From assembly GCA_044892525.1 (NCBI GenBank), contig CM097886.1, forward strand, positions 17,608,001-17,672,000: DNA of 64,000 nt, in the 5' to 3' direction. Of the stretch, positions 5,724-40,265 are shown piece by piece. Each line of letters begins with the position of its first letter. The first letter of the stretch is position 1. The notes beneath the pieces were generated by a model. That model was not told the DNA's origin. It saw nothing but the letters and a program-made list of their open reading frames with translations, and did not search any database. Both the position numbers and the translations under genes were made by a program. This DNA is from Schmidtea polychroa (taxonomy: Eukaryota).

Positions 5724-6154
5724 TATTGATTTGTTTGATTGTCTATTTTCGTGTTATGATGTGTTAGATTAACAATTTAATTAATTATGATGGAAATGGA
5801 ATCGGGGCCGAACGAATTATAGTGCAATGAAATGATACGAACTGTCTGAGTTTGAAATAGGGCAAGTGGTGAATGAAACGAACCTAAATGAGTTTGAATG
5901 AATATGATGAAGTATGATGAGAAAAGAAAACGGGAATTAGTTATTGTGGTTAATTTTAACTGGTTAAAATAAAAGGGGGGACGAAAGAAAGTAAGTGATT
6001 AAAGCGAAAAGATGAAAGGGGAATTTCAAGGATCGAATAAAATACAAAAGTTAAAACACTAACACATAAAAGTCAACGAATATTAAATACAAACATAATA
6101 ATATTATTTTTAATACCAGCAGGAACAAAATAATAACAACACATTCATTTAGAT

Positions 6155-6634
6155 ATGTCGGAAGCTAGACAACATCTACAACAGCTAAGCCGGTTCATCG
6201 AAATAGAAAATGATTCAATAAAAACATTAAAGGAAAAACTGAAACAAATAGAACTGTTAGAACAACAAAGCCACAACGCACCGCTGATATCCAAACAAAA
6301 CTTTCTAACCGACAGATTAGGATCAACAAATACCAACACTGACTTGTCTATTCATTATCAATGGCTTCAGCAACGTCTCGACGACCCCGCTCTGAACATC
6401 GAATATGTGAGGATACGCGAACAAGTCAAAACTCTGTCTCAGCGGATACGAACATCAATAGTAGAGAAAGCAGCGGCCTTGAGAACTTGTAACATTTGCA
6501 AGATGCGACCTGTCAAAACTCTGATTCTACCTTGTGGGCACCTTAGCCATTGTGACGAATGCGCCGCCAGTTTAATCCGTTGTTCTATGTGCACATGTGT
6601 AATAAAAGAGAAGCACACAATCTACTTCAGTTAG
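6155..6634 (+). CDS. Coiled-coil plus C-terminal IAP/MDM2-type RING finger protein (159 aa)
   Basis: CNIC...LILPCGH..HCDEC...LIRCSMC..VIKEKHTIYFS at the extreme C-terminus; ortholog in E2 at 60586-61071; no BIR seen. Confidence 0.85.
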   Translation: MSEARQHLQQLSRFIEIENDSIKTLKEKLKQIELLEQQSHNAPLISKQNFLTDRLGSTNTNTDLSIHYQWLQQRLDDPALNIEYVRIREQVKTLSQRIRTSIVEKAAALRTCNICKMRPVKTLILPCGHLSHCDECAASLIRCSMCTCVIKEKHTIYFS

Positions 6635-7227
6635 GTACGCGATCGTCGCTCGGTGAAGGAAATTGGATGATTGACAATTAGACTAAACATTTTGATATTT
6701 TTGTTCTGATTTAATTCGGTAATGTTTTATAATGATAGCATATATTATCTGTAATGTGGAGGAAATAACTAATAAATCCTTTTTGTGTATTCATTTCATT
6801 ATACGAAGTTATAAATTGATTTGTGTTGTTATAATTTTCACCATGAAGAAAGGGCATTTTAAAAATTTAAAATGATTATTTAAAGTGGAACTAGTCCCGT
6901 CATAGGGTTAAAGGGGGAATAAACCGAGCCACCTTCGGGAGGTACGATATTGGAAACCGTTGGGGAAGGGACAACCGATCACCCCGAGTAAGAGATGTAA
7001 GACGAGGTACCATCGCGAATATTGAAAAGTTTCTGCGGTATGGCTGATCACCATACCAATGTAGAAATGGATCAATGCGATCGTTTTGCGTTTTAAGCAA
7101 GGGGGGAAAGGGGAAACATTCCAAAGCGGTACAGATTAGGTCGACAAATAAAAGTAAAAATAGGAAGATGACAGTATAGAATAAAGACAGAAAAGGAACG
7201 GAAGCATGCAGAGTTTAGAGACATTAG

Positions 7228-7667
7228 GGCCGAGCTGTCGAAAAGTCCAGCCGGTCAGGGAAATTGAAACTGAGCTGTGAAAAGTCCAGCCAGTCGGGGA
7301 TAATAAGGCCGAGTTGTTGAATAGTCCAACCGGTCAGGAGAAGAAGATTGAGCTGTTGAATAGTGCCAGCCAGTCGTAAGATCGAGTTGTTGAATAGTCC
7401 AACCGGTCAGGAGAAGAAGATTGAGCTGTTGAATAGTGCCAGCCAGTCGTAAGATCGAGTTGTTGAATAGTCCAACCGGTCAGGAGAAGAAGATTGAGCT
7501 GTTGAATAGTGCCAGCCAGTCGTAAGATCGAGTTGTTGAATAGTCCAACCGGTCAGGAGAAGAAGATTGAGCTGTTGAATAGTGCCAGCCAGTCGTAAGA
7601 TCGAGTTGTTGAATAGTCCAACCGGTCAGGAGAGGAAGATTGAGCTGTTGAATAGTGCCAGCCAGTC
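7228..7667 (+). repeat. Tandem array (73-bp dimeric unit) of 12 bulged stem-loop subunits in the 5' leader
   Basis: GAGCTGTTGAA recurs at 7350, 7423, 7496, 7569 and 7642. Alternating subunits are GATTG-A-GCTG..CAGC-CAGTC and GATCG-A-GTTG..CAAC-CGGTC. Confidence 0.95.
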
Positions 7668-9054
7668 GTAAAGGCCTAAAGTAATAGTGAGATAGCATTT
7701 AAGCTACAATTTGATGACATCTAAATTACTAGTGAGATAGAATATTAAAGCTAGCTAGGAACGAATTGAATTTAAATATGGAAATTTGAATTTAGGGAAG
7801 ATTAAACGAGCTCGTGGAAAGTGATAATAAAACCCCGTTAGTGAGGGAGAAACGGAAAAAGGAAAATGAATCAGGAGATAATAGAAACAAAGAATAAGTA
7901 TGAATAGATGATGAACAAAAGAGGAAATAATTAATTAATTAAAAGGGATCCCAGATAAGTAGACAAAGTTCTACAGAATTTTTTTTGGTTTAAACCGGTT
8001 AAACGAATTTTGTTTTTGGTTCCAGAGTAGAACCGAGTAAAAGGAAACAGAGACGAAAGAGTAAATAAAATAGCGGAACCGCGTAAAAGGATTAAGGAAA
8101 ATATGGGGGGTAATAAGCAGTAACTGACAACGACCTATCGATATTATAAATGCTAACTATAGATAATTTATACGACTATATAGATAATTGTTACTACCCC
8201 AAATAGATAATTTAAAATCGACGAAAAATATGGGTTGATGGGTAATTACACTCCACGAAGAAGTGTATGAGGGGAAATGAAGAGAAGTATAACAGAGGCC
8301 CAAAAACGGTGTCTGTGCTTGAATATGGTAAAAAGGAATGATTGATTCGTGTAAGCAAATGCAACACGATATCATTTTTTCATTGTAGATATCCATCCAA
8401 CCAAGTCAATTCAGAACCAGCTCAAAAGGAATCTAGAGAATATACAAACAACCCAGGAAAAGCAATTCAGAACCCGCACAAAGGAAAAAACAAATCAATC
8501 CAAATACGGAGGACGACAACGACATCTTTATCTACGACGGAATTATCGAAATACTTAGCATCGACGTACTAGCAGAAGTCAATCAAGGACTCAGATATCT
8601 CCTCCGGAAATCAGCCGAGAAATTACGCAGAATATTCCTCGAAGAAAACACTATCAGAACCGAACTCGACCAATTCAGCAGCCGCTAACCGTAGAAAAAC
8701 CCACGTGGAAAGACAGAAAAGAGTAAAAAGAAAATCACGGATAAACCCAACCTTAGATCTTCAAGTAAGCCAGGAGACGTATTATTTTCAAGAGACGAAT
8801 TAGATCAACTCAAAAGAGGACGATCATTTAGGCAGCAGAGAGGAATATCACAAGGAGCAAAAAGACCCCACAAAACACCGATATACGATCAAGAAAACCC
8901 CACAGCCAGACATACGCCCAGTCGATCTAGAAGTAGAGAAAGCCTATCCGATATAACAAACAACCTAACCGGGTCAACAGAAGAATTATCCGTCTATAAT
9001 TTAGCGACATCGCTGGAAAATTTAAAAGAAACAATAGAGTTACAAGAACCAGTC

Positions 9055-12000
9055 ATGATGAATGTGGTAAAAACCGACGAGTATAAAGAAAAATTTAGAG
9101 GCGAACCGTTTAACGGGAATGCGAACAAGTTGGCAACGTTCATAACCAACTTTGAAGTCTATATCGATGTGTGTGGATGGACGTCCGAAGCAATTAGCAA
9201 ACGGATGCCGTTGTTTTTATGTGATAGCGCATTAGAAGTGTACTTAGAAGCTAAAGAAAGAAATACGAAGTTAGACAATTGGGAAAGCATCAAAACATTT
9301 TTGAGGAAAACCTTCGGAGCCAGCAAACCAATAAATCAAGCCCTAGGAGAATTAGCGAGTAGAAAACAAAGAGCAAATGAATCCATAACGTTATATGCGA
9401 GTGAATTGCGAAGATTGGCAAAGAAGGCCATGAACGGAAACTTGCCGGAGGAAAATCTAATTGGTTACTTCATAGAAGGACTGCGCCGAGAAGAGGTAAG
9501 GGCCTCGGTGGGATGTCAAATGTGTAAAACACTAGAAGAAGCCATAGATTTGGCCACAAGATGCGAACTACACCTCCCAGCACAAATGAATGTCATGCAA
9601 GAGGAGGGAAGAATCGCAACAGCAACGGTGAAAACGGAAAATGGAGATAACAACAATCATGAACCCAAGATGAATCAGTTTATACCAGGAGCACATCAAA
9701 TCTTCAAACCACCACAAGGACGATCAAACGGGAATAACAGTGAACGCAACAACTCGAACAATGGGAACAACTTTAATAATCGACGAAATATGAACGATAA
9801 CAAACAATGCCGAACATGCGGTAAACCAGGACATTGGGATAGAGATTGTTACCGAAACGCAAATTGCAATAGGTGTGGACGACGAGGACACACGGAAAAT
9901 ATATGCCAATTGAGAGGATGTTTTAACTGCGGTCAACCAGGTCATATCTCAAGAGACTGTCGAGAAAGGAGCCAACAACAACGACCACCACAGCGAAATA
10001 ATAACTATGCACCGAATCCGCAACGACAAAGTAATCCTAGTGAGGGAAAGCAAATGAATGTGATGCAAGAAATTTCACAAATGAAGCAGATGATGCAACA
10101 AATGATGAGACCGAGACAAGAGCAAGTACCACAACAAACCCAGAATATACGCATGATGAGGAGCACCGAGAATCTTAACAATTATGAAGTGCAACAACAT
10201 GCACAAGAATGGCAAAGACTACAAGCTGAAGAAGAGAGGATAAAAAGAGAGCGAATTCAGCAGCGACAAGAACAACCATTACGAATAAATATGATGAGAA
10301 TGGTAAGGGAGATAAAAGAGCAATATTGTTACAATTACGGTAAAAATCCAAGAGTTGTACCTATGAGCGAACCAGAGAAACCGAAAGAAACAATTACAGC
10401 AGCAAAAAAGGAAAATTCAACAACACCGCTAAAAGGAAATCAGAGAATTCAGAAAATATTTTGGAAAAAGATAAAAGATAAAATCGAAAGAGAAAATGAG
10501 AAAACAAAAACAGAAGCAGAAGCAGAAAATAACGAAAATGAAAAACAGATTAATCATCTAAATCATGATATGATACGAGAATTAGACTCAGAGGAGCTAA
10601 CGATACTCGAGAACAAAAAGTTAAAGAAAGTACCAAGAATGAGAAATTTACGAATTAATATGATGAGGACAACAAAGAAGGTGTTGTCAACAGATGACGA
10701 TGAGGATTATGTGAGTAGCCTTGGTGGAGAAATGTTACAGTTAAATGAAAATATCGACCAACTAAGAGAAAAGATCGGAGCAGATGAGGATGAAAGTGAA
10801 AGCGACGTGACAAGCGAAAGCGAAGACGGGAATATCGAAACGAAATTGAGAAAAGAAAGAGAAGAAGCGATAAAACAAGTAAAGGAAATACTTCCAGTGG
10901 TGGTAAGAAACCAGGAATTCATTGACATCATACCATACAGACGCTTCATACAAAAGATAATGAAACTAGAAAGAAACGAAAAAGATCTAATACCAAACGA
11001 GGAAAAAGCGATAATAAAGAAGTATATGGAAAAAATGAAACAAGCGGAGACAACACGCTATGTAATAAAAATCGGAACGAGTAAAGGACTCGAGAGAATA
11101 TGGATAAAAAATGCAGTTACAGACGATCTTTTCGATTGGATAAGAGAACATTTGGGCAGCTCGAGAAAGAAAGAATACCTGTATCAATATCAAGGAGAAC
11201 AAATCAAACCAGACATGCACCTAATAGATGCATTGATCTGGCCAGGAGAAACTCAAATATTGAAATTGCATAAAGAGAAGCAACCAGCAAATATTCACGA
11301 ATGGGCTAAAGACGCCAAGGCCGAGTATGACTTTAACATCAAGCTGAAGCTGGAACAAATAAAACAATGCACCTTGCGACGAAATCTAGATAAATTAATC
11401 AAACAAATCCAAGAACAAGTTGAAGATAACTGGGATTTGCTCATAACAAGACGAACTGCGGACATGCATGAACTAATGAGCCGACTGCGAGATACAGAAC
11501 TGCTCCGAATGAGTGATTGGAGAACCATAAATTTGATCCACAAATATGGAAGGTTGAAAGAAACGCAACCGCAGAAATTAGAAATAACCATATGGTTACC
11601 AAACGAGGAGAAACGACGAATAAAGATGAGTAATCAGAGTACGGTGGATGACTTAGTAACCAAGATAAACCAAGAGATAACGGAAAAAGTACGAAGCGAG
11701 AGTAGCGACGGGATGATAGATGATGTAGTCCTGATGTACGATAAAATAATATTTCGGGCCGAAGATGACACCTCGCTAAGCGAAATGGGAATGTGGGATA
11801 ATCATCAAATCATCAGAATATTGCCCATGGACGAATTCCGAACAAGAGATGTAACATACCAGAAAGAGATACGGGACAGGATGAAAACGCTATACCAAAA
11901 ATCAGTGGAGATAATTGAAATTCATCAACAATGGCTAAAGGAAAAAGAGCTTCAAGGGAAAATAAAGAAACTGAGTACTAGATCCTGCAGACGAACCCCG

Positions 12001-14886
12001 TGGGAAAGGATGTGGAATGCGGAAAACAAAGAATGGGAAATCAGGAAAGGGATTTTCGTAGAAACAGACATTGGTGAGGCAGAAAGTGAATCAGAGGAAG
12101 AGGAAGATGAACCTCCAAAATACGAAGAGGACGAAATAGAATCGATATCGGACGACGAAAGCGAAACGGATGTTACGTCAGAAAGTGAAACGGAAACCAG
12201 ACATATTCATGCGATGAGAAAGAAAGAACGCGAATATGCCGATATGGACAGCGAAGAAGCGATGGAAGCTCGAGAACGAGAAGAGAAGGAAAGATATAAA
12301 CAATTAGGTGATATCTTAGCAACGGGAGCAAAAAATCAAAAACGTCAAGTAATAGCATTGGCTAACATCATCCTAAAGACATCAGAGAATATCCACAATC
12401 TAAGAGAAATGGCGAAAGCGATTGAGGAATACCGACAATATAACGAATGGTACCCAGAACAGCTAGAACAAATTATTAGGAAATGGAGAAACCAAGAATG
12501 GGCACAAGATACCCAGGAAAGGTATCGCATCCGAGTCAAGTACCCCGACAAGAGCATTGAGGATATAGAAGTACATCCAACAACCAAGATCAGAGAATTG
12601 AAAAAGAAATTAGCATACGAAACTCCATTTCACCTACAACTATTCGGAAAATCGTTGGATGATAATGCAGATGTCGGAATAACACCCATGAGATTGGGGG
12701 AGATCAATGTATTGACAATGGCAGAAACATTGGGAAAACCGATTAAAAGGAAGAGCAAATCCAGTAAACCTACGAAAGGTAGCTTGAGTACACCAAGCCC
12801 TAACAAAGTGGCGAGTAAATCGAATGAAACCGAGGAAATCGAGGAAATTATATTGGAAGACAGCGATGAAGGAGCTGGAGAAAGATCACCAATTCTGGTA
12901 AGATGGCCGACAGGAGCCGAAATGTGGACAACAAGCCAACCATCAACTAGCTATCAACAACCAAATAAGCTGAACATAGAGGAAATTGTCGATAATACGA
13001 CAGAAACCGAAATTGACGAACAATTTCAACGACAAAAAGGACCAACGAAAGCAATATCCGAAGGTCAAACGGACAAAATAATAGACGAATGGAATGAGTG
13101 GTTGAGAAACAACGATAGCTCATTGCCAAGAACAGATAACGAGAGAAACCCGAATTATGAAACGACAAGAGAAGCTGGAACAATGATGGAGAAACGGGCA
13201 AAAGGAAGACCCAAGAAGCAAGGAGAAAAACCAGAATTTAAAACCAGAGAACAACTGAAACAAGAACAAGGACAAGTCAGATTAGAGAAACTGGATAAAA
13301 TAGTGTGGGATCTAAAAGAGACCCAGCCAACAATCGAAAGAGGCGAAAAATGGATACGAGAGCTAGTAAAAGATATGCTAATAATAACGAACCCACAATT
13401 GCGACGATTATGGCAACGAAAAGTAGCAAGCGTAGATGCCAGACAGTTATGGAATACAATATCCGGAATAATTCCGAAATTAATCAAAGAGAAGACAAAA
13501 ACCACTAAAACCGATTGGGAAGAGACAAGAAGAGTAATTGAACAATTAACTTTAAACGCAAACGACGACGAACATCATTTAGTAGTATTAACGTATCTAA
13601 TGTACAATTTGATGGGATTAGCAGCAAGGAAAATACCTAACAAACAATTCGCAAATCATGTAGAAATGACCGTTACAATCATTGAAAATACAATCGAACC
13701 ACATATTATCCGCGCCGGTGGGTGGAAAAGACTCATACAAGCGCCACGAAAAAACGAGCAAGAGAGATCAATGCAAATTCGGTTGAAGAAATTGCTAAAC
13801 GAGCTGGAATGGGAATTGCCATTGAAAGACCCAGCCAGCAGAAAAGCGTCGATTAATTCACTAATGATGACCATGATGATATGGATGCTCTGCACCAGTG
13901 GAGCCGCGGGATTTACCATTTACGACTGTGACAATTCGATAATAGGAGAAAGGTACTCCCTGAGAGATATAGAGGAATGTAGACAGGCATCTCCGAATAA
14001 ATTAGATATAGTAAAAAAGAAAGTCTCCTATCACGTATACCAAGAATCAGATTTCATTAGAACGCAAGCTAGAGAATGCGTAGTATCGAAGAAAGTGTTG
14101 GCATATTACTGTGGACAATACTCATATTCAACCCTCATATTACCTGGATTAGATAAAGAAATAGTACCTATACAACGGGAAGACTGTAAAGAGCTTTTTA
14201 GAACCGGAGCGATGAGAATCAGGGATGGAGTAACAATACACGGACAAAGCGGAATGATCAAGACAGAAAGTATCTATGTCGCCGGACGAGTAAAATCAAC
14301 TGATGGATCATGTAACGGAGGCACATATACGATCAGAGGGGAGGTGATATCGGGAGTAGTAGTAATTGAGTCCTACACAGTAGAATTGAAGGAATATGAA
14401 GCACAATTCGACGCAAACAACTATCAAATGAAAACCAACCCAGCATGCAGAGCTACGGAAAACGTGTGTAGAACGGGAATTTCGACTATAATATATGAAG
14501 CTAACACCCAAAAATGCCGACTCCAATTGTTAAAAAGTGCCCTATTCAATGAAGTAAAAGGAGAAATTTACGAAAACGAAGACGACGATGAAGAGAATGG
14601 AAACGTAAGGATGCGAAATGGGAAACCAGTTCCACCATCCCCCAAAGAAAAGAGACTCACAACCCAAAAAACACCAACGGCATTAATTACAGATGATCCA
14701 GATATCGGTATGAGATTCATCAGAGAAAAAGAGACTACCAAATGTGACAGCATAGTATATCGGACGAACTACGCAGGTATCTACATGTCAAGGCAAGTAA
14801 TAGACCGAGCAGTGGGAAAGGTAGCAACAGAGGACGTAAAATTGTACCTGTACGCCAATAACAAAATGGACTTTTTATTTCATTGA
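9055..14886 (+). CDS. gag: E1 polyprotein, N-terminal part: Gag capsid, 3 CCHC knuckles, Ubl domains, Bcl-2-like domain, first half of envelope glycoprotein
   Basis: Retrotransposon capsid motifs (EPFNG..., Q...ESI..Y...LRRLA); CX2CX4HX4C x3 at 9808-9960; signal-like segment then FTIYDC at 13912. Ends at an in-frame TGA (14884-14886) where E2 has Arg. Confidence 0.92.
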   Translation: MMNVVKTDEYKEKFRGEPFNGNANKLATFITNFEVYIDVCGWTSEAISKRMPLFLCDSALEVYLEAKERNTKLDNWESIKTFLRKTFGASKPINQALGELASRKQRANESITLYASELRRLAKKAMNGNLPEENLIGYFIEGLRREEVRASVGCQMCKTLEEAIDLATRCELHLPAQMNVMQEEGRIATATVKTENGDNNNHEPKMNQFIPGAHQIFKPPQGRSNGNNSERNNSNNGNNFNNRRNMNDNKQCRTCGKPGHWDRDCYRNANCNRCGRRGHTENICQLRGCFNCGQPGHISRDCRERSQQQRPPQRNNNYAPNPQRQSNPSEGKQMNVMQEISQMKQMMQQMMRPRQEQVPQQTQNIRMMRSTENLNNYEVQQHAQEWQRLQAEEERIKRERIQQRQEQPLRINMMRMVREIKEQYCYNYGKNPRVVPMSEPEKPKETITAAKKENSTTPLKGNQRIQKIFWKKIKDKIERENEKTKTEAEAENNENEKQINHLNHDMIRELDSEELTILENKKLKKVPRMRNLRINMMRTTKKVLSTDDDEDYVSSLGGEMLQLNENIDQLREKIGADEDESESDVTSESEDGNIETKLRKEREEAIKQVKEILPVVVRNQEFIDIIPYRRFIQKIMKLERNEKDLIPNEEKAIIKKYMEKMKQAETTRYVIKIGTSKGLERIWIKNAVTDDLFDWIREHLGSSRKKEYLYQYQGEQIKPDMHLIDALIWPGETQILKLHKEKQPANIHEWAKDAKAEYDFNIKLKLEQIKQCTLRRNLDKLIKQIQEQVEDNWDLLITRRTADMHELMSRLRDTELLRMSDWRTINLIHKYGRLKETQPQKLEITIWLPNEEKRRIKMSNQSTVDDLVTKINQEITEKVRSESSDGMIDDVVLMYDKIIFRAEDDTSLSEMGMWDNHQIIRILPMDEFRTRDVTYQKEIRDRMKTLYQKSVEIIEIHQQWLKEKELQGKIKKLSTRSCRRTPWERMWNAENKEWEIRKGIFVETDIGEAESESEEEEDEPPKYEEDEIESISDDESETDVTSESETETRHIHAMRKKEREYADMDSEEAMEAREREEKERYKQLGDILATGAKNQKRQVIALANIILKTSENIHNLREMAKAIEEYRQYNEWYPEQLEQIIRKWRNQEWAQDTQERYRIRVKYPDKSIEDIEVHPTTKIRELKKKLAYETPFHLQLFGKSLDDNADVGITPMRLGEINVLTMAETLGKPIKRKSKSSKPTKGSLSTPSPNKVASKSNETEEIEEIILEDSDEGAGERSPILVRWPTGAEMWTTSQPSTSYQQPNKLNIEEIVDNTTETEIDEQFQRQKGPTKAISEGQTDKIIDEWNEWLRNNDSSLPRTDNERNPNYETTREAGTMMEKRAKGRPKKQGEKPEFKTREQLKQEQGQVRLEKLDKIVWDLKETQPTIERGEKWIRELVKDMLIITNPQLRRLWQRKVASVDARQLWNTISGIIPKLIKEKTKTTKTDWEETRRVIEQLTLNANDDEHHLVVLTYLMYNLMGLAARKIPNKQFANHVEMTVTIIENTIEPHIIRAGGWKRLIQAPRKNEQERSMQIRLKKLLNELEWELPLKDPASRKASINSLMMTMMIWMLCTSGAAGFTIYDCDNSIIGERYSLRDIEECRQASPNKLDIVKKKVSYHVYQESDFIRTQARECVVSKKVLAYYCGQYSYSTLILPGLDKEIVPIQREDCKELFRTGAMRIRDGVTIHGQSGMIKTESIYVAGRVKSTDGSCNGGTYTIRGEVISGVVVIESYTVELKEYEAQFDANNYQMKTNPACRATENVCRTGISTIIYEANTQKCRLQLLKSALFNEVKGEIYENEDDDEENGNVRMRNGKPVPPSPKEKRLTTQKTPTALITDDPDIGMRFIREKETTKCDSIVYRTNYAGIYMSRQVIDRAVGKVATEDVKLYLYANNKMDFLFH

Positions 14887-17800
14887 GGACAAACGACAAT
14901 GCAAAAAGTGTATTACGATCTTATACAAAATGACTGTTCATTGAATAAAGAGATACTAAAAACAAAATTAGCCATCGCAATAACACACCCAGATAACACA
15001 ATGCCATCACTCCCGTTACCGGATGGACATTTTGGTAGAATGGTGGGAGAGGTAATGTATACATATGCATGTACCAAGACATTTGCGCGACTGCCAAGAA
15101 AGCCCACAATTCCACCAGGGAAATGTGCAAACGAATTGGAAATTAGCTACAAAGGGCGGAACAGATTCGTTCAACCCGTCACTCGAATTATGAACCCAAT
15201 TGGATTTTATCCGAACACCTTTAATTGTTCAAATGCATACGGGCCATTATATGAAAAACCCGATGGGAAATGGATAATGTTACCGGTAAAAACCGAAGTA
15301 CAAGAGCCTAAAAAGTTTGGATTAATAGAACTCGCAACAGAGCAAGATTTCAAACCAATTGATGTGTCAAAAGCAGGTATGTACTCACCAGAGGATTTAG
15401 AAACAGCACGACTAAACGTACTATTCCCAGCAAGGCGAGAATCCATTCTATCGAATATGGTTACCATAACTGGGGGAACGAATTTCCAGTCAGGCCCCAA
15501 TTACGAACTATTATTGTCACCCGATCATTTTCAACAAGCCACGTCAAACATGATGAAAGCAATGTGGGAAAGATTTCTAGTGTTCGGTCAAATGATGGCA
15601 GGAATATTGGGAATCATCTTAATTATTCAGATTGTCAGAGTGATATTGACTCAAATGTTAGCGTGTTTTGATATCTATAAGAGAGAAAAGAAAGTAAATT
15701 GGAAGTTGATAGTAGGTTTTCTACCATTTTTGGCAAAAACAATGGTGTTGCACGGTCATTCTAAAGATATACACAGAATAAAACGATTAATCAAAATACT
15801 GACAAAAATAAAAGGGACTGACGAGGAGGTCGGTAGACGATTTCGGAAAACAATGTATGATGAAGCAACGAGAGCGCAACTAAAAAAGAACAAACCAAAA
15901 TTCCTAGACAGATTTAGAAATCGATCAAACAGCAGCGATAGTGATGATGATGATAACGGGAATGACAAATACCCGTATCCAAGCAGAAACCCGAACGAAA
16001 GGCAAATAGAAACAGCACCATTTTGGGAGAAAGAAAAAACAAATACCTGGATAGCCAACGGAAGTTATATACCACCAGATATCGTTGGACAACAAACAGC
16101 TTTGACCATGACACAAAATATGTATCCACAGTTACCAAGTCAACCAGGGATGAACTATATGCCGACCCGAAGAACGAAAAGTGTAGACCAAGCTGATGAC
16201 GTCAGAACAATAGCAGTAATGAGTTCACCAGGAGGAGCAGCAGTAACAGTCATGATCCAAATCAACGGGAAAGAGACAAGCGCAATGATAGATACCGGAG
16301 CAAATGTATCAGCAATAGCAATAAACCAAATACCCAGTAAATGTTGGAAAGACATCGAACAAACAACTATCCATATCATCGCATGCAGTAAAGAAACCGT
16401 AGACGTGGTAGGAAGATGGTGGACTACGTTACGATATCAAGATAATGAAATTGAAACGTATCTAGCGGTGATACCCAAACTGAGTGAACCATGTATAATC
16501 GGAACGGATTTAATGCCGGAATTGTTCAAGGAAGTAGTAATTGATTTAACAACAATGTGTCTAAAAGACAAAATGGGTAGAATATGCAAGATGAACGCAA
16601 TAATTAGATGCCCGGAGAAAATAATTGTACCCGCAAAATCACAGATGATATGTCAAATAAAAGTGGATGCAGGAATGGAAGGGGAAGTCATTTTTGAGCC
16701 AAGCAAATCATTCGAAAAACGACGAGAATTACCATTAGCAAGAGAAATAATAACAATAAATGAAGACGGGGAAATACCAATCAACATCACAAATTTCGAG
16801 GAAGAAGATAAAATCATATATGAAAATGAAAGATTGGGTAGATTGACACCCATGATAGACATCGAATTACCAAAAATCACCAACGAAACAACGAAAGCTG
16901 ACGAATTATGGATAATTGATAGCACCTTGCTAACGGAAAAAGAAAAGGAAAGACTTCAACAATTATTGATAGAATATAAAGATATATTCGCAATTTCGGA
17001 TTTAGATTTGGGAGCATGCGATGTTACATTACACGCAATACCATTAATAGACGAAACTCCAATCGCACTACGTCCATACAAACTAGCAGAGAAGCAAAAA
17101 GAGATAGCCGAAACAGAAGTACAAAAAATGCTAGATGCACAAGTGATCGAACCAAGTTGTTCGCCATGGCAATTTCCAGTAGTCATGGTGAAGAAAAAAG
17201 ATGGTACTCAGAGATTCTGTATCGATTATCGGAAACTAAATGCAGTAACAAAAAGAGACACATACCCGTTACCAGACATCAATGAGATGTTACTTATGTT
17301 ACAGGGGGCCGCATATTTTACGTCTTTAGATCTGAAAAGCGGATATTGGCAGATCAAAGTCAAGGAGGAAGACAAAGAGAAAACAGCATTCACATTGGGC
17401 CGAGATCTATACCAATTCAGGAAAATGCCATTTGGACTGACCAATGCCCCAGCATCATTTCAGAGATGTATGAATTTCGTCACGCACGGGATCAAGCAGT
17501 GTATGGTATATATTGATGATTTATTAATATATTCAGCAACATTCGAACAACATTTGGAAGACATTAGAAACGTGTTCATCCGATTACGACAATGGAAATT
17601 GAAACTCAAACCATCAAAGTGTGATTGGGCAAAAGAGAAAGTTACGTTCTTAGGACACATAGTGTCAGCAAAAGGCAAAGAACCAGACCCAAGAAACATA
17701 GAAAAAATAAAAACATGTCCAGCACCAAAAACTGTCACCCAAGTCCAAGAATTTCTCGGATTATGCGGATATTATCGAAAATTCATCAAAAACTATGCAG

Positions 17801-20800
17801 GTATTGCGAAACCAATACAGGAATTAGTGAAAAAGGATATTTCATTTATTTGGGGTGCAGAACAACAAAAAGCATTTGAGACATTGCGAGATAAATTAAT
17901 TGAAGCCCCAATACTAGTACATCCTGATTTCAAGAAACCGTTCTTATTAGCAACAGATGCAAGTGGATATGCAGCCGGAGCAATATTAGGACAACTGGAT
18001 GAAGAAGGAAAAGAAAGAGTGATTGGATACTACAGCAGAACGTTTAAAAAGCACGAGAAAAACTATTCCGTAACCGAGAGAGAAGCGTTAGCAATTATAC
18101 AAGCGATTAAACATTTTCGATATTTGTTATGGGGACACGAAATATGTATCACAACGGATCATCAACCACTAGTATGGCTTGGTCAACACAAAGAAGCTTC
18201 AAGTAGATTGATGCGATGGGCAATGCAGTTACAAGAATATTCACCGTTCATAAAATTCAAAGCGGGAAGAGCGAATGCCAATGCGGATTGTATGTCCAGA
18301 TTTATCTTTCCAGATTTAGTAGATCACGAAATGCAACGAATATGTCTGATGGTAGCAGAAGATTTAGATTTTTGCCAATTACGGAAAGACCAACAAGAGG
18401 ATACAGAGTTGAAGCAAATCATTGAGTATGTGAAAACAGGGAAAGCAGAGGTATATGAGAAAGATCAAAAATTGAAGGAGCATATGGATAAACATCGACA
18501 TCGATATATTATCGAGAAAGACTGGTTGTTGATAATGGATGGAGAAAAAAGACTGATGTGCATTCCCGAGAATAGACGTAAAGAGCTGCTAACACAATAC
18601 CATGACGGAAGACTCGGAGTACATATGTCATCTAAAAAGACGTTGGCACGAATGAAACAAAAGTATTTTTGGCCTACATTGACCGAGGATGTAACAGAAT
18701 GGGTAAAGAACTGTATAACTTGCGCGACCAGAAAAAACACGGGAACGAAATGGAAGGCACCATTAAAGCCAATGCCAGTACCAGCGGAACCAATGACAAT
18801 GCTATCAATGGACGTAGTCGGTCCACTACCAGAATCAGATAGAGGAAATATATATATATTGGTAATCACAGATTATTTGACAAAATTCCCCGAAGCATTC
18901 GCAATGGCAGATCAGAAAGCAAGAACAATCGCGAAAATACTAGTAGAGGAGATATGCTGTCGATATGGAACACCAAAACAGATATTAACTGATCAAGGAA
19001 CAAATTTCATGAGCGAAATAATGAGCGAAGTCACCAACTACTTCAAGATCGCAAAATTAAGAACATCACCGTACCATCCACAAACAAATGGTATGACAGA
19101 AAGATTCAACGGAACCTTGATCCAGATGTTATCAAATTATGTCGATCGTCATCAACGAGACTGGGATGAATATATAAAATTATGCCTAATGGCTTACAGA
19201 ATGTCGATTCACGCGTCCACAAAGATGAGTCCGTTCAAGTTGATGTACGGCAGAGAATGCAATATGCCAATGGATTTGGAGTATCAGCCACCAATATCAC
19301 AGTATATGGAAATAGATGATTATGTAACCAAGTTCAAGGAAAGAATGCAGGAAATCTGGGAAACTGCAGGATTGAATATAAAATTTTATCAAGAAAGTTA
19401 CAAAGATCTACATGATAGAAAGAAAAACGTCAAACAGCATACGTTTCAAACAGGCGACTGGGTGATGATCGAAACACCAGAATTAATTCCAGGAACCACC
19501 AAAAAATTACAACGAAACGGTAAAGGTCCGTATGAGATTCTATTCATCGGAGAAACCAATGTGAGAGTACGATTGGTAAACAACCCCTTCACGAGGCCAA
19601 TATATGTAAATGTGGCACGATGCAAGCCAATTCCGAAAACCGCCACCAGTCAGCCAGAAGGACGAACATTAACAACAAGATCACAAACGTATAGAATAAA
19701 TATGTTACAACAGATAAACGAACCAACAGGTAACCGATTGGGGTTACAACCATCAGAAGCAGAGAAAATCATAAAGGAAGTGAAAGCTAAAATGCCCGGA
19801 TGGGCAGAAGACAGATTAGATTTTGAGATATTGGGAGGTCTGCTAACAATGATCGAAAATTATGCAAACCGAGAAAGAACACACCCATTACTCAGGGTAG
19901 TAAAAAGTCAATGGCCTATATTATTTACGATCACAGACCATTATGGAGATACACCGCTGCACAAACTTTTAAAGGTCGGGAATAATGAACAAATACTGGA
20001 AACGATCGAAGCATTTCGCGACTGTAACATTTCGACGGATCAAGAAAACAACCAAGGTTACACTCCACTAATGATAGCAGCCAATCGGGATAAAGCTAAA
20101 GATATTATCATCGCATTACTTGAAACTGGGTCAAAGATAACCACACAAGACCACAACCAGAAAAATGCACTACATCATGCAATCGAAGGGAAAAGTACGG
20201 AAGCCTTCATAATCTTAGTAGATCTATTATCATATGAGGATCATAGGGAGATAGGAAACATGTATGACGGGCTATTAACTGCAATCAAAGAGAAATTAAT
20301 AACAATTGCTGGATTACTAATTGCATGGAGGAACCCGATCAAAAACGATTATATGGTAGATATAAACGAAACATTTACCAAAGGAGAAAACACCTTGATG
20401 AGAGAAGCGATGAGAGGACATCACCTATTCGAAATTCCAAATCAACTACTACAACGTGGCATAAAGTTTTCAAATCACAAAGACGAACAACTAATCAGAA
20501 AACGAATTACCAAATTCGAAAAAGCTATATCTCAATTTACCGATAAAGTACAAGTAAAATTTTGGGAAACCGTGAGTGTATTATATATGATGGAAACTAT
20601 GAACAACATTCGAGAAAACTACCTAAGTATTATTCAAGTGCTTACGGCGGAAGAACGCATTAACAGTTCAAACAAGAAAAAGATAAAAATAAAGAAAGTA
20701 AAAACAAGAGAGTCTGAGGAACAAGTCGATCAAATAATAACCGATATAGCAACAACAAGTAAACCAAAGATAATAAACTCAGACCAGGAGATAATAATAC

Positions 20801-22929
20801 GCAAAGCCAAAGAGGTGTTCTTTGAAGAAATGCGAGATTTATCTGACGAAGCAATACTATCAAAAATAACAAAAACAGTACACACCTACGCAAGAGACCA
20901 GACCACAAATCTAGACATAGAAAAAATAAAAACATTTATACCACTAGCATTCACCTTACCAACAAAAGACTCAAGAACACCATTACAACAAGCCATTTTA
21001 GCAGCAAAAGAAAACAGAGCAATAACCATCATAAGAATCCTTAGAGACTTCGGAGAAGAATCTAATGCAAAAAATGAACAAGGAGAAACAGCAATGATGT
21101 ATGCAGCCATAACAAATATACACCCGAAAACATTACATATACTACATCGATCGGGATCAAGACTGGACGAAATATCAAACGAAGGAAATTCTACCATGGA
21201 TTGGGCAACAATACAACCAAACTTGGAAATGATTAGATTCATTTGTAAAAATGCTACAAGAACTGAGGTAGAAAATATCTGTAAAAACACGTCACAGTTC
21301 CAATGGAACACGATACGGATGAACTTAGAAGCCATGAAGTTATTGCTAACATGGAAAATACCGCAAAGCAATAAATATGCAATAAATATAAATGAGTTCT
21401 ACGAAAACGGAGAAAATGCTATGGTTAAAAATACACTAACAAAAGGAGGAACTCCGAAAATCATAATGATCGTATTGAACAGAGAAGACCTCAAATTCAC
21501 GCAAAATCTAAACGAACAAAAGCGAATCGGAAAACATCGCCGTATACAATTGAGAGAACTGGTAAAAGAATGGAATAGAAAGAGACATGTAGCAACAGGC
21601 AGAAAAGAGTTTGAATTCGAAGCAAAATTAGCAAGAAATAGAGTGCTAACGGCATACCGCAGATTGTTGAATGATATAAATGTCGAGGACGACATTTTAA
21701 ACGATAGCGGGGGAGATAAAGACGATAAAGACGACGATAATAATGAAAAAGGTCGAAACGGGAATAAAGAGAAAGAGAAATCAGAGGAGAATAATCAAGA
21801 AAATAACGACGCGAGTAGGAAAAAAGAGGAAAATAACCCGGGAAACCGAATGAAGCAAGAAGAAAAGACGAATAGTGGAAAACAGAGGGTATGTCTACTT
21901 TTTACCAACAAAGAAATGGAGACAAATATGATGATAATGATACTCGTATTAACAATGGTGGAAATGATAACAGCCCAGGGAGGAATGAGAACGATAAAAG
22001 AAGCCAAAGAAACGGAAAATAAGGATAACAAAGAGGAAGAACTAAAACAAGAAAAGAAAAAACAAGTACAAGAGCAGCAATGGGATCTAAAAGAAGAATG
22101 GGATTTAAAAGAAAGGTGTATATTAGGAAGATGTATGTCTAGAGCTTATCAGAGACTAGTGTTAAAAAATGAAGATGCAGAACCAATAACGGAAGTGGGA
22201 ATACAAGAAGCGTACCAACATCGAAACGGGAAGAAGATAACAAAAGTCAAATGGAAAGAGGTACACCTGAGTAAAGGAGGGGAAATAGTGATAACACAGC
22301 TTCAACCAAGAAAAGAGCACAAAGTGTGTATTTCAAGGCTAGGCCCAGGAGAAAATTGCCTACAATATGTAACGCAACAACAACCACCAAAGGAATATAC
22401 GGTATGTATCCTGAGAAACGGTCCAGAAAGAGAATGTCGACGATACCCTGGGAAAAGAGGGAGGAAAAGAAAAATCAATGATGAAAAAGATGAGCAAGGA
22501 AAACGCAAGAAAAACAGTGAGAAACATCAAGACAATTATGTATCCGAGGAGGAGATGGAGAAAATACAAAAAATGGCAAAGGAAGGTATGAACGAGGAAA
22601 TAGCAAGAATACGAGGAATGATGAAAGGAAATGGCAAAGACGGTAATCTAAAAAGCACAGAAGCAATATCAACAATAACGAACAAGGAGAAAGCGGAAAT
22701 TATCAGCGTAAAACAGATGATGTGGATCAGCGGCATAATAATAACAGGGGCCTTTTTAATCATAACGGGGGGGACAATAAAAATAATCAAAGATAGACGG
22801 CATCGCGGAGAACTAGAAATGGCCAGAATAAGAAATTTTCAACATCGTGTAAAACGACCAAGTAATATCAAGCAGGAACAGTGGGTGGAGGCCTGGAATG
22901 CTCAGCGCCCTCCAAGCTCACGTATATAG
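14887..22929 (+). CDS. pol: E1 polyprotein, C-terminal part (same frame after the TGA; ORF-track ATG 14899): glycoprotein C-half and TM, PR, RT, RNase H, IN, ankyrin repeats, membrane tail
   Basis: IDTGA (16288), YIDD (17509-17520), LATDAS/TEREAL/TDHQPL, HHCC zinc finger and D-D-E integrase (SMDVVG, LTDQG, TERFN), GPY, and TPLH/TPLM ankyrin repeats. Confidence 0.95.
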   Translation, partial: GQTTMQKVYYDLIQNDCSLNKEILKTKLAIAITHPDNTMPSLPLPDGHFGRMVGEVMYTYACTKTFARLPRKPTIPPGKCANELEISYKGRNRFVQPVTRIMNPIGFYPNTFNCSNAYGPLYEKPDGKWIMLPVKTEVQEPKKFGLIELATEQDFKPIDVSKAGMYSPEDLETARLNVLFPARRESILSNMVTITGGTNFQSGPNYELLLSPDHFQQATSNMMKAMWERFLVFGQMMAGILGIILIIQIVRVILTQMLACFDIYKREKKVNWKLIVGFLPFLAKTMVLHGHSKDIHRIKRLIKILTKIKGTDEEVGRRFRKTMYDEATRAQLKKNKPKFLDRFRNRSNSSDSDDDDNGNDKYPYPSRNPNERQIETAPFWEKEKTNTWIANGSYIPPDIVGQQTALTMTQNMYPQLPSQPGMNYMPTRRTKSVDQADDVRTIAVMSSPGGAAVTVMIQINGKETSAMIDTGANVSAIAINQIPSKCWKDIEQTTIHIIACSKETVDVVGRWWTTLRYQDNEIETYLAVIPKLSEPCIIGTDLMPELFKEVVIDLTTMCLKDKMGRICKMNAIIRCPEKIIVPAKSQMICQIKVDAGMEGEVIFEPSKSFEKRRELPLAREIITINEDGEIPINITNFEEEDKIIYENERLGRLTPMIDIELPKITNETTKADELWIIDSTLLTEKEKERLQQLLIEYKDIFAISDLDLGACDVTLHAIPLIDETPIALRPYKLAEKQKEIAETEVQKMLDAQVIEPSCSPWQFPVVMVKKKDGTQRFCIDYRKLNAVTKRDTYPLPDINEMLLMLQGAAYFTSLDLKSGYWQIKVKEEDKEKTAFTLGRDLYQFRKMPFGLTNAPASFQRCMNFVTHGIKQCMVYIDDLLIYSATFEQHLEDIRNVFIRLRQWKLKLKPSKCDWAKEKVTFLGHIVSAKGKEPDPRNIEKIKTCPAPKTVTQVQEFLGLCGYYRKFIKNYAGIAKPIQELVKKDISFIWGAEQQKAFETLRDKLIEAPILVHPDFKKPFLLATDASGYAAGAILGQLDEEGKERVIGYYSRTFKKHEKNYSVTEREALAIIQAIKHFRYLLWGHEICITTDHQPLVWLGQHKEASSRLMRWAMQLQEYSPFIKFKAGRANANADCMSRFIFPDLVDHEMQRICLMVAEDLDFCQLRKDQQEDTELKQIIEYVKTGKAEVYEKDQKLKEHMDKHRHRYIIEKDWLLIMDGEKRLMCIPENRRKELLTQYHDGRLGVHMSSKKTLARMKQKYFWPTLTEDVTEWVKNCITCATRKNTGTKWKAPLKPMPVPAEPMTMLSMDVVGPLPESDRGNIYILVITDYLTKFPEAFAMADQKARTIAKILVEEICCRYGTPKQILTDQGTNFMSEIMSEVTNYFKIAKLRTSPYHPQTNGMTERFNGTLIQMLSNYVDRHQRDWDEYIKLCLMAYRMSIHASTKMSPFKLMYGRECNMPMDLEYQPPISQYMEIDDYVTKFKERMQEIWETAGLNIKFYQESYKDLHDRKKNVKQHTFQTGDWVMIETPELIPGTTKKLQRNGKGPYEILFIGETNVRVRLVNNPFTRPIYVNVARCKPIPKTATSQPEGRTLTTRSQTYRINMLQQINEPTGNRLGLQPSEAEKIIKEVKAKMPGWAEDRLDFEILGGLLTMIENYANRERTHPLLRVVKSQWPILFTITDHYGDTPLHKLLKVGNNEQILETIEAFRDCNISTDQENNQGYTPLMIAANRDKAKDIIIALLETGSKITTQDHNQKNALHHAIEGKSTEAFIILVDLLSYEDHREIGNMYDGLLTAIKEKLITIAGLLIAWRNPIKNDYMVDINETFTKGENTLMREAMRGHHLFEIPNQLLQRGIKFSNHKDEQLIRKRITKFEKAISQFTDKVQVKFWETVSVLYMMETMNNIRENYLSIIQVLTAEERINSSNKKKIKIKKVKTRESEEQVDQIITDIATTSKPKIINSDQEIIIRKAKEVFFEEMRDLSDEAILSKITKTVHTYARDQTTNLDIEKIKTFIPLAFTLPTKDSRTPLQQAILAAKENRAITIIRILRDFGEESNAKNEQGETAMMYAAITNIHPKTLHILHRSGSRLDEISNEGNSTMDWATIQPNLEMIRFICKNATRTEVENICKNTSQFQWNTIRMNLEAMKLLLTWKIPQSNKYAININEFYENGENAMVKNTLTKGGTPKIIMIVLNREDLKFTQNLNEQKRIGKHRRIQLRELVKEWNRKRHVATGRKEFEFEAKLARNRVLTAYRRLLNDINVEDDILNDSGGDKDDKDDDNNEKGRNGNKEKEKSEENNQENNDASRKKEENNPGNRMKQEEKTNSGKQRVCLLFTNKEMETNMMIMILVLTMVEMITAQGGMRTIKEAKETENKDNKEEELKQEKKKQVQEQQWDLKEEWDLKERCILGRCMSRAYQRLVLKNEDAEPITEVGIQEAYQHRNGKKITKVKWKEVHLSKGGEIVITQLQPRKEHKVCISRLGPGENCLQYVTQQQPPKEYTVCILRNGPERECRRYPGKRGRKRKINDEKDEQGKRKKNSEKHQDNYVSEEEMEKIQKMAKEGMNEEIARIRGMMKGNGKDGNLKSTEAISTITNKEKAEIISVKQMMWISGIIITGAFLIITGGTIKIIKDRRHRGELEMARIRNFQHRVKRPSNIKQEQWVEAWNAQRPPSSRI

Positions 22930-23097
22930 AAAGGATTATGACTGTATATAGATTGTAAAAAGTAAGTAGGTAATATTTATTTATATAACAGTACTCGATA
23001 TTTTTATATAAGCGCGGTATCAATAGTATATAATGATGGGGATAATTAATATGAAAATAAAATTAGATAAGGATTGAAAAGTATATATAAATTAAGA

Positions 23098-23457
23098 ATG
23101 GAACGAATAGGCGAGGAAGTAAATCACAGTACGACAACCGAGGAGATGTGGAAACAACAATGTGCAATGTTAACTCAAGTGATTTCGAATTTACAGGAAC
23201 AAGGACTCGCTGTACAAAGAAGCTTAGTCGAAAGTTTAAATAAAGGCTTCAGTTATGTAAGAATAATCGAAGACCAACGAATAAAAATAGAACAAATGCA
23301 GCGAGAGATAGACCGAATATCACGATACAGCCAGGTGCAAGAAGAGGAGTTAATAAGAATCGCGGAAGAGATGGAGCGAGAGGAGATAGAAGACTGGTCA
23401 GAATGGTTAACCAGCAGGGAAGAGGGCGGACAAGAGGCCGACTCTTCCAGCCAATAA
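23098..23457 (+). CDS. Small acidic coiled-coil accessory protein (119 aa from first ATG)
   Basis: Conserved with E2 43856-44215 (WKQQCA.L.Q..SNLQEQGL, EDWSEWL); the ORF track starts at a TTG, first ATG is 23098. Confidence 0.75.
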   Translation: MERIGEEVNHSTTTEEMWKQQCAMLTQVISNLQEQGLAVQRSLVESLNKGFSYVRIIEDQRIKIEQMQREIDRISRYSQVQEEELIRIAEEMEREEIEDWSEWLTSREEGGQEADSSSQ

Positions 23458-23546
23458 ATATAACCTAAAATAGCAATGTAAATAACTGTAAATAAAAATA
23501 CGAAACTGTACCAGTAACGAATATATGTATATATATAATTATAGAA

Positions 23547-24935
23547 ATGGATAAGCGACAACGAGAAGAATTCAAAGAAATTGTTGAACAAGTCAGAAAG
23601 TCCACCACAATTCGAATACACAACCATGTAACGTGTGGAATATGCAAGAGCTTATTAAGAGAACCTCACCAAACCAGATGTGGATGCAGAATGTGCAGAG
23701 AATGTGTAGAGGAGATAATAAAGAAGGGACCACAATGGTGCCCAGTATGCAAAGAAACAATGATAACAAGTCTGGGAGATACAAACGAAGATAAAGCAGC
23801 TGTAAAAGATATGTTGAATGCAAACCTAGGATGTAAAAACACCCCATGTAATTGGCGAGGAGTGATATGGGAAGTGAGGCAACATATGGAGCAATGTGAA
23901 TATAAAATCAGTCAATGCAAACGTTGCCAAGAAGAGATTAAAGTCAATGAAGAAGCAGAACATCAAAGTCGATGCGAAGAAAGACTGGAGAAATGTGAGT
24001 ATTGCGGAGAAACCGACACCTGGAAAAAACTAATCAGTCAACATCACAACATACAAGAGGAGAAAGTGTGCGCAGAATTCAGAGGAGAATGCCCCAACAA
24101 ATGCGATAAACCCGGAGTAATAAAACTCGCTCAACATCTAAAAGAATGTGAAAGAAAAAAGATAACGTGTGTGCTAGGAAAATGGGGATGTCAGAAACAA
24201 TTACACCGAGGGGAATTACCCCAACATCTAGCAGAAAACGTATCAACACACGCGGAAATATGGTCAACGGTATTACAAGAAAACGAAAGGAAAACCGAAG
24301 ACTTAGAAAGAGAAATAGTCTCGCTAAAAGCGTTGGTAAAAGAACTATTGGAAGAAAAGGAAGCATTTGAAGAGGCAAGAACAAGTACAAAGATACAGAC
24401 AGATCTAGTAGAAACTAGCAACATTATGGTGAAAGAACTACATCAAAAAGTAAGCGAATTAAACCTCAACGAATTAATACCCACGGCTCCATACATATGG
24501 AAAATAACGGGAGTAAAAGAGAAGATGCAGAGAGCGAGAAATGGAAAGGATACAACATTACTAAGTCCAGCATTCTACTCATGGAAAAACGGGTATAAAA
24601 TGAAAATGAAAGCATACCCCAATGGGGATGGAAGTGCATACGGAACGCATTTCTCAGTATTCTTCTTGATGTGCAAAGGGCTATACGACGAGTTAATAGA
24701 ATGGCCATTCAAAGCAAAAATAGACCTCGCAATGATGAACTATCAAAGTATACATGAACAGAGTTTCCATACAGCGGGAAACCTCGTATGTTACCAAAGG
24801 CCCTTGGAAGAAGAAGGACCAGCAACTGGAGCACCGAATTTCATCCTACAGCGGAAAGTAGAAGACATGACGAGAAACGACACCATATACATAAAAATAG
24901 TGGTGAGGCGAGACGGGAAGAGTAGGACTGAGTAG
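23547..24935 (+). CDS. TRAF-like protein (RING, TRAF zinc fingers, coiled coil, MATH domain), 462 aa
   Basis: N-terminal RING CGIC...EP.QT.CGC..C..C...CPVC; repeated CxxC..H..C fingers; MATH motifs YIWKITG, SPAFYS..NGYKM, YPNGDG..GTH.S.F, EWPF. Confidence 0.92.
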   Translation: MDKRQREEFKEIVEQVRKSTTIRIHNHVTCGICKSLLREPHQTRCGCRMCRECVEEIIKKGPQWCPVCKETMITSLGDTNEDKAAVKDMLNANLGCKNTPCNWRGVIWEVRQHMEQCEYKISQCKRCQEEIKVNEEAEHQSRCEERLEKCEYCGETDTWKKLISQHHNIQEEKVCAEFRGECPNKCDKPGVIKLAQHLKECERKKITCVLGKWGCQKQLHRGELPQHLAENVSTHAEIWSTVLQENERKTEDLEREIVSLKALVKELLEEKEAFEEARTSTKIQTDLVETSNIMVKELHQKVSELNLNELIPTAPYIWKITGVKEKMQRARNGKDTTLLSPAFYSWKNGYKMKMKAYPNGDGSAYGTHFSVFFLMCKGLYDELIEWPFKAKIDLAMMNYQSIHEQSFHTAGNLVCYQRPLEEEGPATGAPNFILQRKVEDMTRNDTIYIKIVVRRDGKSRTE

Positions 24936-27073: not shown

Positions 27074-27132
27074 AACCAACAAAAAGCGATGTATATAAAT
27101 ATGTATAAAATAACTAAATGTATATCAGTATC

Positions 27133-40210: not shown

Positions 40211-40265
40211 GATACTATTATACATTCATTATGTTTATTTACAATTGGTTTTAATGACCCTTAAT

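Follow-up and report, generated by a model that had tools for sequence, protein, structure and literature searches.

Giant Ty3/gypsy elements of the Burro type, with an envelope gene (env) in frame between gag and pol, were described in 2019 (PMC6431247). The text of PMC13524379 reports GAG-ENV-POL elements with an env of the herpesvirus gB type from flatworms, nematodes, and bryozoans, and cites Sacco 2022 for nematode elements in which env and pol are flipped. Here, we analyzed a 64,000-nucleotide stretch of the Schmidtea polychroa genome (GCA_044892525.1, contig CM097886.1, positions 17,608,001 to 17,672,000 of the forward strand; hereafter, the window), which carries two ~30-kb Ty3/gypsy long terminal repeat (LTR) elements arranged tail to tail, E1 on the forward strand and E2 on the reverse strand. 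The original prediction from this DNA placed an envelope glycoprotein inside the polyprotein, between Gag and protease, and implied that this gene order was novel. Given these published descriptions, the gag-env-pol order with an in-frame env is already known and is not new. What is added here is a very young, high-copy family with a predicted class III env that is under strong selection.

The polyprotein frames and the parts of the env module are as follows (positions are those of the window).

8695..22929, forward strand: E1 polyprotein frame, 4,744 codons with one in-frame stop, first ATG at 9055
13843..13911, forward strand: E1 internal signal-peptide-like segment with a basic n-region and a short, Met-rich h-region
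13912..15570, forward strand: E1 predicted class III (chuvirus G/gB-like) ectodomain, stop at 14884-14886
15574..15654, forward strand: E1 Env transmembrane (TM) helix, the most hydrophobic 19-mer of the E1 and E2 polyproteins
15694..15750, forward strand: E1 second, weaker hydrophobic segment, containing Pro and with basic residues on both sides
45820..58575, reverse strand: E2 polyprotein frame, uninterrupted over 4,251 aa, reaching from Gag past integrase to the ankyrins
51541..53448, reverse strand: E2 env, no stop
53448-53380, reverse strand: E2 signal-like segment
53379-51721, reverse strand: E2 ectodomain
51717-51637, reverse strand: E2 TM helix
51597-51541, reverse strand: E2 second hydrophobic segment

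In both polyproteins, the frame reads in the order Gag, cargo, signal segment, glycoprotein, TM helix, the protease (PR), the reverse transcriptase (RT), ribonuclease H (RNase H; RH), integrase (IN), and ankyrins. The motifs on which the original prediction relied were all recovered in one E1 frame, with FTIYDC at 13912, YCGQYS at 14107, GEVMYTY.C at 15046, CANELEI at 15124, FVQPVTRI at 15166, G.YSPEDLE at 15376, LFPARRE at 15421, the TM helix from 15574, and the protease DTG at 16291. They recur in E2 from 53379 down to 51870, with DTG at 51000, and the absence of any stop or shift from Gag to integrase in E2 was confirmed by its open frame. In a Pfam scan, the order was Retrotrans_gag, zf-CCHC, Monjiviricetes_fusion, RVP, RVT_1, RNase H, integrase, and ankyrins. 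Since Monjiviricetes_fusion (PF24664) was matched at E=6e-72 between zf-CCHC and RVP, the identification of env is not due to chance. The predicted position between Gag and protease thus stands, but env does not directly follow Gag, as ~1,300 aa of cargo separate the last zinc knuckle from the signal segment. That segment ends with small residues at -3/-1 ahead of the mature N-terminus, as judged by pattern, and the E1 ectodomain contains 14 Cys and one N-glycosylation sequon. Neither copy in the window is wholly intact: the E1 env is interrupted by an in-frame TGA at residue 325, and E2 has a frame shift near 45830, past the ankyrins, which leaves its C-terminal membrane segment in another frame.

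The profile-free homologue search of 1.84 billion representative sequences found 1,018 env relatives at E≤0.001, and the E2 env was aligned with 119 of the 150 matches listed (120 sequences). On this alignment, AlphaFold2 gave a model of the E2 env with a predicted local distance difference test score (pLDDT) of 89.3 and a predicted template modeling score of 0.73, showing long beta hairpins and a 48-residue central helix (H311-358). Among viral proteins, Foldseek placed glycoproteins from chu-like viruses first (~20% identity, E 1.6e-35, with TMq up to 0.68), and the PDB fold matches listed were all herpesvirus gB (E 7e-14), with which a structural comparison aligned 403 residues (Z 10.1, root-mean-square deviation 7.0). 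The gB likeness was found by fold search only, a PDB sequence search with env returning 0 matches at E≤10. Of the 14 env Cys, 13 show a conservation of at least 90% across the 120 sequences. Within the limits of prediction, a class III fold like that of chuvirus G and herpes gB is well supported for the ectodomain. The original prediction had proposed a chuvirus-like class III identity and named chuvirus G and gB for a structural check; the model matches both, and together with PF24664 and the Foldseek matches it bears the proposal out.

Between E1 and E2, which are sister families, the ratio of nonsynonymous to synonymous substitution rates (dN/dS) was 0.051 for the ectodomain (552 codons), 0.025 for RT, and 0.023 for the capsid, while other regions of the frame with estimable dS gave 0.012-0.09, except for a leader with 0.27. 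Judged by these ratios, the env ectodomain is kept by purifying selection. Copies were surveyed in the 781-Mb assembly, where the matches lie mostly on four very long contigs. For the E2 type, the best 72 of 2,847 candidates were scored, a sample biased to intact copies; env was free of stops in all 72, and 49 of them lie in frames of at least 4,700 aa (hand count). Among the 123 rows scored for the E1 type, 39 are copies with an identity of 98% or more that lie in frames of at least 4,700 aa (hand count), and therefore the E1 stop represents damage to that copy. This is a young, high-copy family with dozens of open 4,700-aa frames.

The env block also belongs to more distant elements. In a third, distant family of this genome, env lies ~370 bp upstream of pol in 18/18 scored copies, and in the one copy read (L040), Gag, cargo, signal, env, TM helix, and protease share one frame. 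Among database proteins, env was accompanied by PR/RT/IN in 7/7 long matches and followed by protease or RT in 14 of 20 scanned relatives, four of these 20 being among the 7 long matches; the distant relatives with an in-frame env are 26-41% identical. In a quick tree of 59 of 127 extracted envs (all 20 from long polyproteins and every third of the rest), the 20 lie on one side of a branch and the 39 others on the opposite side (SH-aLRT 97), in a set chosen by similarity to E2. Across 12 elements, env and RT-RH identities co-vary (Mantel rho 0.85, inflated by near-duplicates and similarity-based choice). The original prediction could have failed if env were a nested insertion peculiar to this copy. 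That env is a recent nested insertion or an assembly artefact can practically be dismissed, given its in-frame presence in both sister families, the third family, and the relatives, its low dN/dS, and the contigs of independent sequencing runs (X6, X2), which cover all 30 bins of the E2 frame.

The membrane topology was assessed from the hydrophobic segments. The polyprotein has a single strong TM helix (Kyte-Doolittle value 2.53, next best 1.35), and the signal segment, with its basic, hydrophobic, and small-residue parts, is kept before the mature N-terminus in fused relatives. These two features fit the topology of the original prediction, with cytosolic Gag, lumenal ectodomain, and cytosolic Pol; the placement itself is deduced from sequence, and we hold it to be fairly likely. 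The second hydrophobic segment, flanked by net charges of +2 and +5 on its two sides, is probably cytosolic and membrane-associated. We tested 26 proteins with a long N-terminal extension, a set that contains E2 and L040 as well as four proteins that probably have another layout than gag-env-pol; 11 of the 26 lacked a Met over the last 30 aa ahead of the h-region. Near the signal, silent-site conservation is below the average (0.36-0.44 vs 0.57), so no conserved RNA signal is visible there. Both results favor an internal signal.

We consider it likely that the module is the envelope part of a giant, Burro-type, endogenous retrovirus-like Ty3/gypsy element and that it is made and processed as follows. 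Full-length RNA would be translated into one chain of ~4,700 aa, of which Gag and cargo would fold in the cytosol. The internal signal segment would thread the ectodomain into the endoplasmic reticulum, where host signal peptidase would free its N-terminus, and the TM helix would stop transfer, so that PR-RT-RH-IN-ankyrin would be cytosolic again. Until the element's own protease cuts, the signal segment would keep Gag-cargo anchored, and the Env tail would do so for Pol; this tethering would gather core, enzymes, and fusogen on one membrane, from which enveloped particles may bud and move between cells. At the C-terminus, a further signal/TM pair would put another ectodomain in the lumen. The 1:1:1 production of Gag, Env, and Pol expected in the original prediction would apply only if synthesis is from unspliced RNA. 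In single-ORF elements like Tf1, ratios are adjusted after translation. Replication of an element requires Pol in the cytosol, and the family here is clearly active.

Several points weigh against this mechanism. The h-region of E1/E2 is short and moderately hydrophobic (19-mer value 1.27, below the 1.5 TM threshold) and holds several Met codons able to start a separate product. On the Kyte-Doolittle scale, fused proteins do not have a less hydrophobic second segment than stand-alone glycoproteins (1.34 vs 1.26, p=0.19); only a home-made scale hinted at one. The ectodomain has just one sequon. Separately, three slippery heptamers upstream of env are common to E1 and E2 and may be chance in A-rich DNA. 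Contigs of four runs, of which X5-X7 are only guessed to be RNA, were compared with the element over the stretch outside the LTR and the leader, where a donor could lie; none of the 15 joints listed (of 34) skips the whole env or resembles a splice to its start, and the survey has no bearing on expression.

Env or Env-Pol could instead come mainly from spliced, trans-spliced, or internally started RNA, the Met cluster opening an ordinary N-terminal signal peptide, with Gag in excess from full-length or truncated RNA rather than at 1:1:1. Retroviral and errantiviral env is indeed made from spliced RNA, and a Met stands at or just before the h-region in E1, E2, and L040 and in 15 of the 26 proteins tested. 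We nevertheless regard this route as unlikely, considering the 11 proteins that lack such a Met and the unconserved silent sites near the signal. In run X5, guessed to be RNA, two loose ends (56270 and 54073) look like poly(A) and would have suited it; both lie in A-rich genomic DNA (sense strand 41% A), so that internal priming explains them, and they were rejected as RNA evidence.

The Env ectodomain might also be kept for an intracellular or structural role, as an assembly scaffold or in interference with related viruses, and no longer fuse membranes. The furin-like site of the E2 env is not found at the same place in E1, and the text of PMC13524379 gives no shown function for any gB-type errantivirus env. 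Such a role is improbable in view of the full-length predicted class III fold, the conserved cysteines, the strong purifying selection, and the co-variation of env with RT-RH, itself inflated by near-duplicates. The second hydrophobic segment might also be a true TM helix in some molecules, whose lumenal Pol would be lost, lowering the Pol-to-Gag ratio. It is conserved, with similar hydrophobicity in fused and stand-alone relatives, and two flanking TM domains are reported for some gB-type envs in the text of PMC13524379. Basic residues flank it on both sides in E2 and L040, however, and Pro occurs within it in 20/20 fused vs 5/55 stand-alone proteins, the fused ones being kin rather than independent, which makes such a dual topology very improbable. 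Synthesis as one internally threaded chain remains the reading that we prefer.

As a separate observation, a hydrophobic-N/H/C/R-hydrophobic-hydrophobic motif, a candidate site for the element's protease, recurs at domain borders of the E2 polyprotein (e.g., aa 293, 449, 526, 649, 1164, 1713, 2626, 3209, and 3661), including just before both signal segments. It also occurs inside domains.

By its sequence, the polyprotein appears to re-enter the membrane system at its C-terminus, which the original prediction overlooked. The corresponding features are listed below.

21907..22926, forward strand: second membrane protein at the end of the E1 polyprotein, after the ankyrins
21907-21975, forward strand: its signal-like segment
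22099-22467, forward strand: possible FN3-like part of its ectodomain
22717-22788, forward strand: its TM helix, followed by a short tail
44376-45827, reverse strand: E2 C-terminal membrane segment
L041:1-1449: C-terminal membrane unit of the third family

Between E1 and E2, 227 of 271 residues of this protein are identical, 76 of them with silent codon differences, and it belongs to the long frames of other copies. A C-terminal signal-ectodomain-TM unit was seen in E1/E2, in the third family (L041), and, by eye, in 7/9 long relatives; the ectodomains of the relatives and the third family do not align with that of E1. Pfam gave only weak matches (E 0.016 and 0.064), no database homologue was present among 1,593 candidates of 614-2,000 aa, and no significant match to the C-termini of the relatives was obtained. 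The single-sequence model is all-beta, with a pLDDT of 43, too poor for a fold search. The nearest Atlas clusters are FN3, at 0.81-0.84 for E1 and 0.89-0.91 for L041, which are leads or weak evidence; the protein is possibly FN3-like. In the literature examined, no description of the C-terminal membrane protein or of a topology model for Burro was found, and figures, supplements, or Repbase reports may show one.

According to the text of PMC13524379, herpes gB depends on partner glycoproteins, and how gB-type errantiviruses enter cells is unexplained, which makes the C-terminal protein a candidate entry partner. It is conceivable, though doubtful, that one four-crossing polyprotein yields two surface proteins, a central class III fusogen and a fast-evolving, FN3-like type I protein acting as its attachment or trigger partner, in analogy to the part that gD or gH/gL plays for herpes gB. 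Recruitment of Gag and Pol to the budding membrane would then be by covalent tethers in place of a myristoylated matrix.

T/S-x-V or a similar ending is seen at several C-termini, namely those of L041, the relatives P0001-P0003 and P0012, and the ORFs 25147-26190 and 41134-42246; we take these ends to resemble PDZ-binding motifs. The L041 polyprotein and an accessory ORF of E1/E2 share identical last five residues.

The remaining features of the two elements are the following.

1489..32251, forward strand: E1, complete giant Ty3/gypsy (putatively Burro-type) provirus, 30,763 bp
1485-1488 / 32252-32255: E1 target duplication, 4 bp
1489..5693, forward strand: E1 5' LTR, 4,205 bp, TG...CA
28047..32251, forward strand: E1 3' LTR
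5701..5718, forward strand: primer-binding-site-like 18-mer, identical in E2
6137..6634, forward strand: upstream accessory open reading frame (ORF) with a C-terminal RING (zf-C3HC4_3, E=3e-8)
9208..9963, forward strand: Gag, with capsid (Retrotrans_gag) and three CCHC knuckles; Pfam scored on E2
11062..13734, forward strand: cargo between Gag and Env, ubiquitin-like and Bcl-2-like segments; Pfam on E2, below cut-off
16249..19614, forward strand: Pol, with aspartic protease (DTG at 16291), RT (YIDD), RNase H, and integrase
19984..21294, forward strand: ankyrin repeats; Pfam scored on E2
23496..27792, forward strand: E1 downstream accessory ORFs, four in all
23496-24935, forward strand (E1), and 42382-43818, reverse strand (E2): TRAF-like ORF, RING+MATH
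25147-26190 and 26309-27073, forward strand: two charged E1 ORFs without a Pfam match
27118-27792, forward strand (E1), and 39569-40225, reverse strand (E2): last accessory ORF, with a signal-like start and a TM-like segment by eye
35179..64000, reverse strand: E2, 30,400 bp long, of which 1,578 bp lie beyond the window
60586-61092, reverse strand: RING ORF upstream of the E2 polyprotein

Only 2.9 kb (32252-35178) separate E1 from E2, and the pair forms a large inverted repeat that is 81% identical, the interiors being ~81% identical at the DNA level. The LTRs of E2 are 4,165 bp long, and its target duplication is 4 bp. Since the LTR pairs differ at 3 sites in E1 and 0 in E2, both are very recent insertions. 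The primer-binding-site-like 18-mer is presumably of the tRNA-Pro type; no tRNA genes were present in the window. The cargo matches, scored on E2, were weak and below cut-off (ubiquitin E=0.004, Bcl-2 E=0.026).

The RING ORF upstream, the TRAF-like ORF downstream, and the Bcl-2-like and ankyrin segments form a set that suggests interference with cell death and innate signaling. The last accessory ORF, judged by eye, is possibly a third membrane protein. Ahead of the first ATG are 115-120 open codons in E1 (8695-9054, forward strand) and E2 (58231-58575, reverse strand); this is the leader with a dN/dS of 0.27, its silent-site identity is the highest of the frame, and either translation from a non-AUG codon or an RNA signal overlapping the frame may lie behind it. 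No Gly follows the first Met of the polyprotein, and so there is no myristoylation signal there. Each LTR contains a 253-codon ORF (4407-5168 and 30965-31726, forward strand; 35713-36474 and 61948-62709, reverse strand); by eye, the E1 and E2 versions look homologous, in spite of LTR DNA that hardly aligns, and Pfam gave no match for the E1 LTR ORF. Between the RING ORF and gag, the leader region carries 73/74-bp tandem arrays of 5 and 6.6 copies (7225-7671, forward strand; 59490-59976, reverse strand). Outside E1 lies a fragment of a DDE_1 (pogo/Tigger-type) transposase (66-680, forward strand, E=2e-12). Behind its polyprotein, the third family has a 497-aa accessory ORF (L041:1853-3343), presumably DEDD-type exonuclease-like by eye. 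The distant relatives P0001-P0010 have two or three aspartic-protease-like domains per polyprotein, in several cases with one after integrase.

With these elements, it becomes testable by observation how a lumenal fusogen is processed out of the middle of an LTR element's Gag-Pol chain. The same holds for the way in which gB-type envs act in the absence of the partners on which herpes gB depends, a question left open in the text of PMC13524379, and for which the C-terminal membrane protein provides a concrete candidate for the missing partner. Were the particles to carry infection from cell to cell, the stem cells of a regenerating host would be a population in which they might spread.

By the sequence features testable here, E1 and E2 are Burro-type gB-env Ty3/gypsy elements. 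They have the Ty3/gypsy PR-RT-RH-IN order with YxDD, two TG...CA LTRs, a short target duplication, and the primer-binding-site-like 18-mer, and the 17 Pfam families listed include RVT_1 and RT_RNaseH types in Pol and none of the BEL/Pao type. As described in the text of PMC6431247, Burro/GYPSM1 likewise exceeds 30 kb with LTRs, encodes one polyprotein of 4,700-5,100 aa, and has a Gag with CCHC knuckles, ubiquitin-like and Bcl-2-like cargo (weakly matched here), ankyrins, MATH/TRAF, and an env in frame between Bcl-2 and protease with matches to mononegavirus glycoproteins. At 30,763 and 30,400 bp with long LTRs, E1 and E2 exceed 30 kb as well, whereas the family frames of 4,700-4,817 aa are slightly shorter than the ~4,900-5,100 aa of the single Burro ORF. 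Unlike in Burro, MATH/TRAF lies here in a downstream accessory ORF, and an upstream RING ORF was recovered but no BIR; with Pfam, BIR and dUTPase-like segments gave no match here and the ubiquitin/SUMO-like segment only one below cut-off, the published Burro assignments having used HHpred (PMC6431247). A second C-terminal membrane protein is not mentioned in the Burro text (PMC6431247). Kinship to Burro1-4/GYPSM1 was judged indirectly, by these features and by hand comparison with Smed_errantivirus_1/_5.

The gB-type "ancient errantiviruses" described in the text of PMC13524379 share the gene order and class III env of E1/E2. By hand count, 100 of 179 gap-free positions are shared between the E2 ectodomain and the stretch printed for Smed_errantivirus_5, and 82 of 100 positions between the third family (L040) and Smed_errantivirus_1 (PMC13524379). 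The family here is distinct and is not one of the elements listed there. In the main text of PMC13524379, "polyprotein," "splic," "fused," and "Burro" occur 0 times, so that it gives no processing model in those words. The chuvirus G/Monjiviricetes glycoproteins share the Pfam family and predicted fold of the E2 env at ~20% identity, but are encoded by a stand-alone gene in chuviruses. The polyproteins of flaviviruses, hepaciviruses, and alphaviruses comprise a cytosolic capsid, an internal signal, a lumenal envelope, and cytosolic enzymes, and are cut by host and viral proteases. They offer an analogy in how the chain may work, with no homology claimed; their fusogens are class II, and they replicate through RNA.

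Two other groups were considered and rejected. Anakin has a chuvirus G env like E1/E2 on a BEL/Pao backbone in the text of PMC7642597, whereas the Pol Pfam set here is of the gypsy type. Kuafuorterviruses (PMC11673190) and Troyka (PMC12440569) are described in those texts as 5-6 kb long, with an IADD/VADD/LADD RT motif and no env; they were rejected because E1/E2 have YIDD, 30 kb, and an env. Atlas virus of hookworm, as described in the text of PMC9094657, likewise encodes a single stop-free polyprotein (Gag-Pol-Env) with a captured RNA-virus fusogen. It differs in being a belpaovirus with class II Gn/Gc and a C-terminal env, and its Pol therefore need not follow a lumenal domain.

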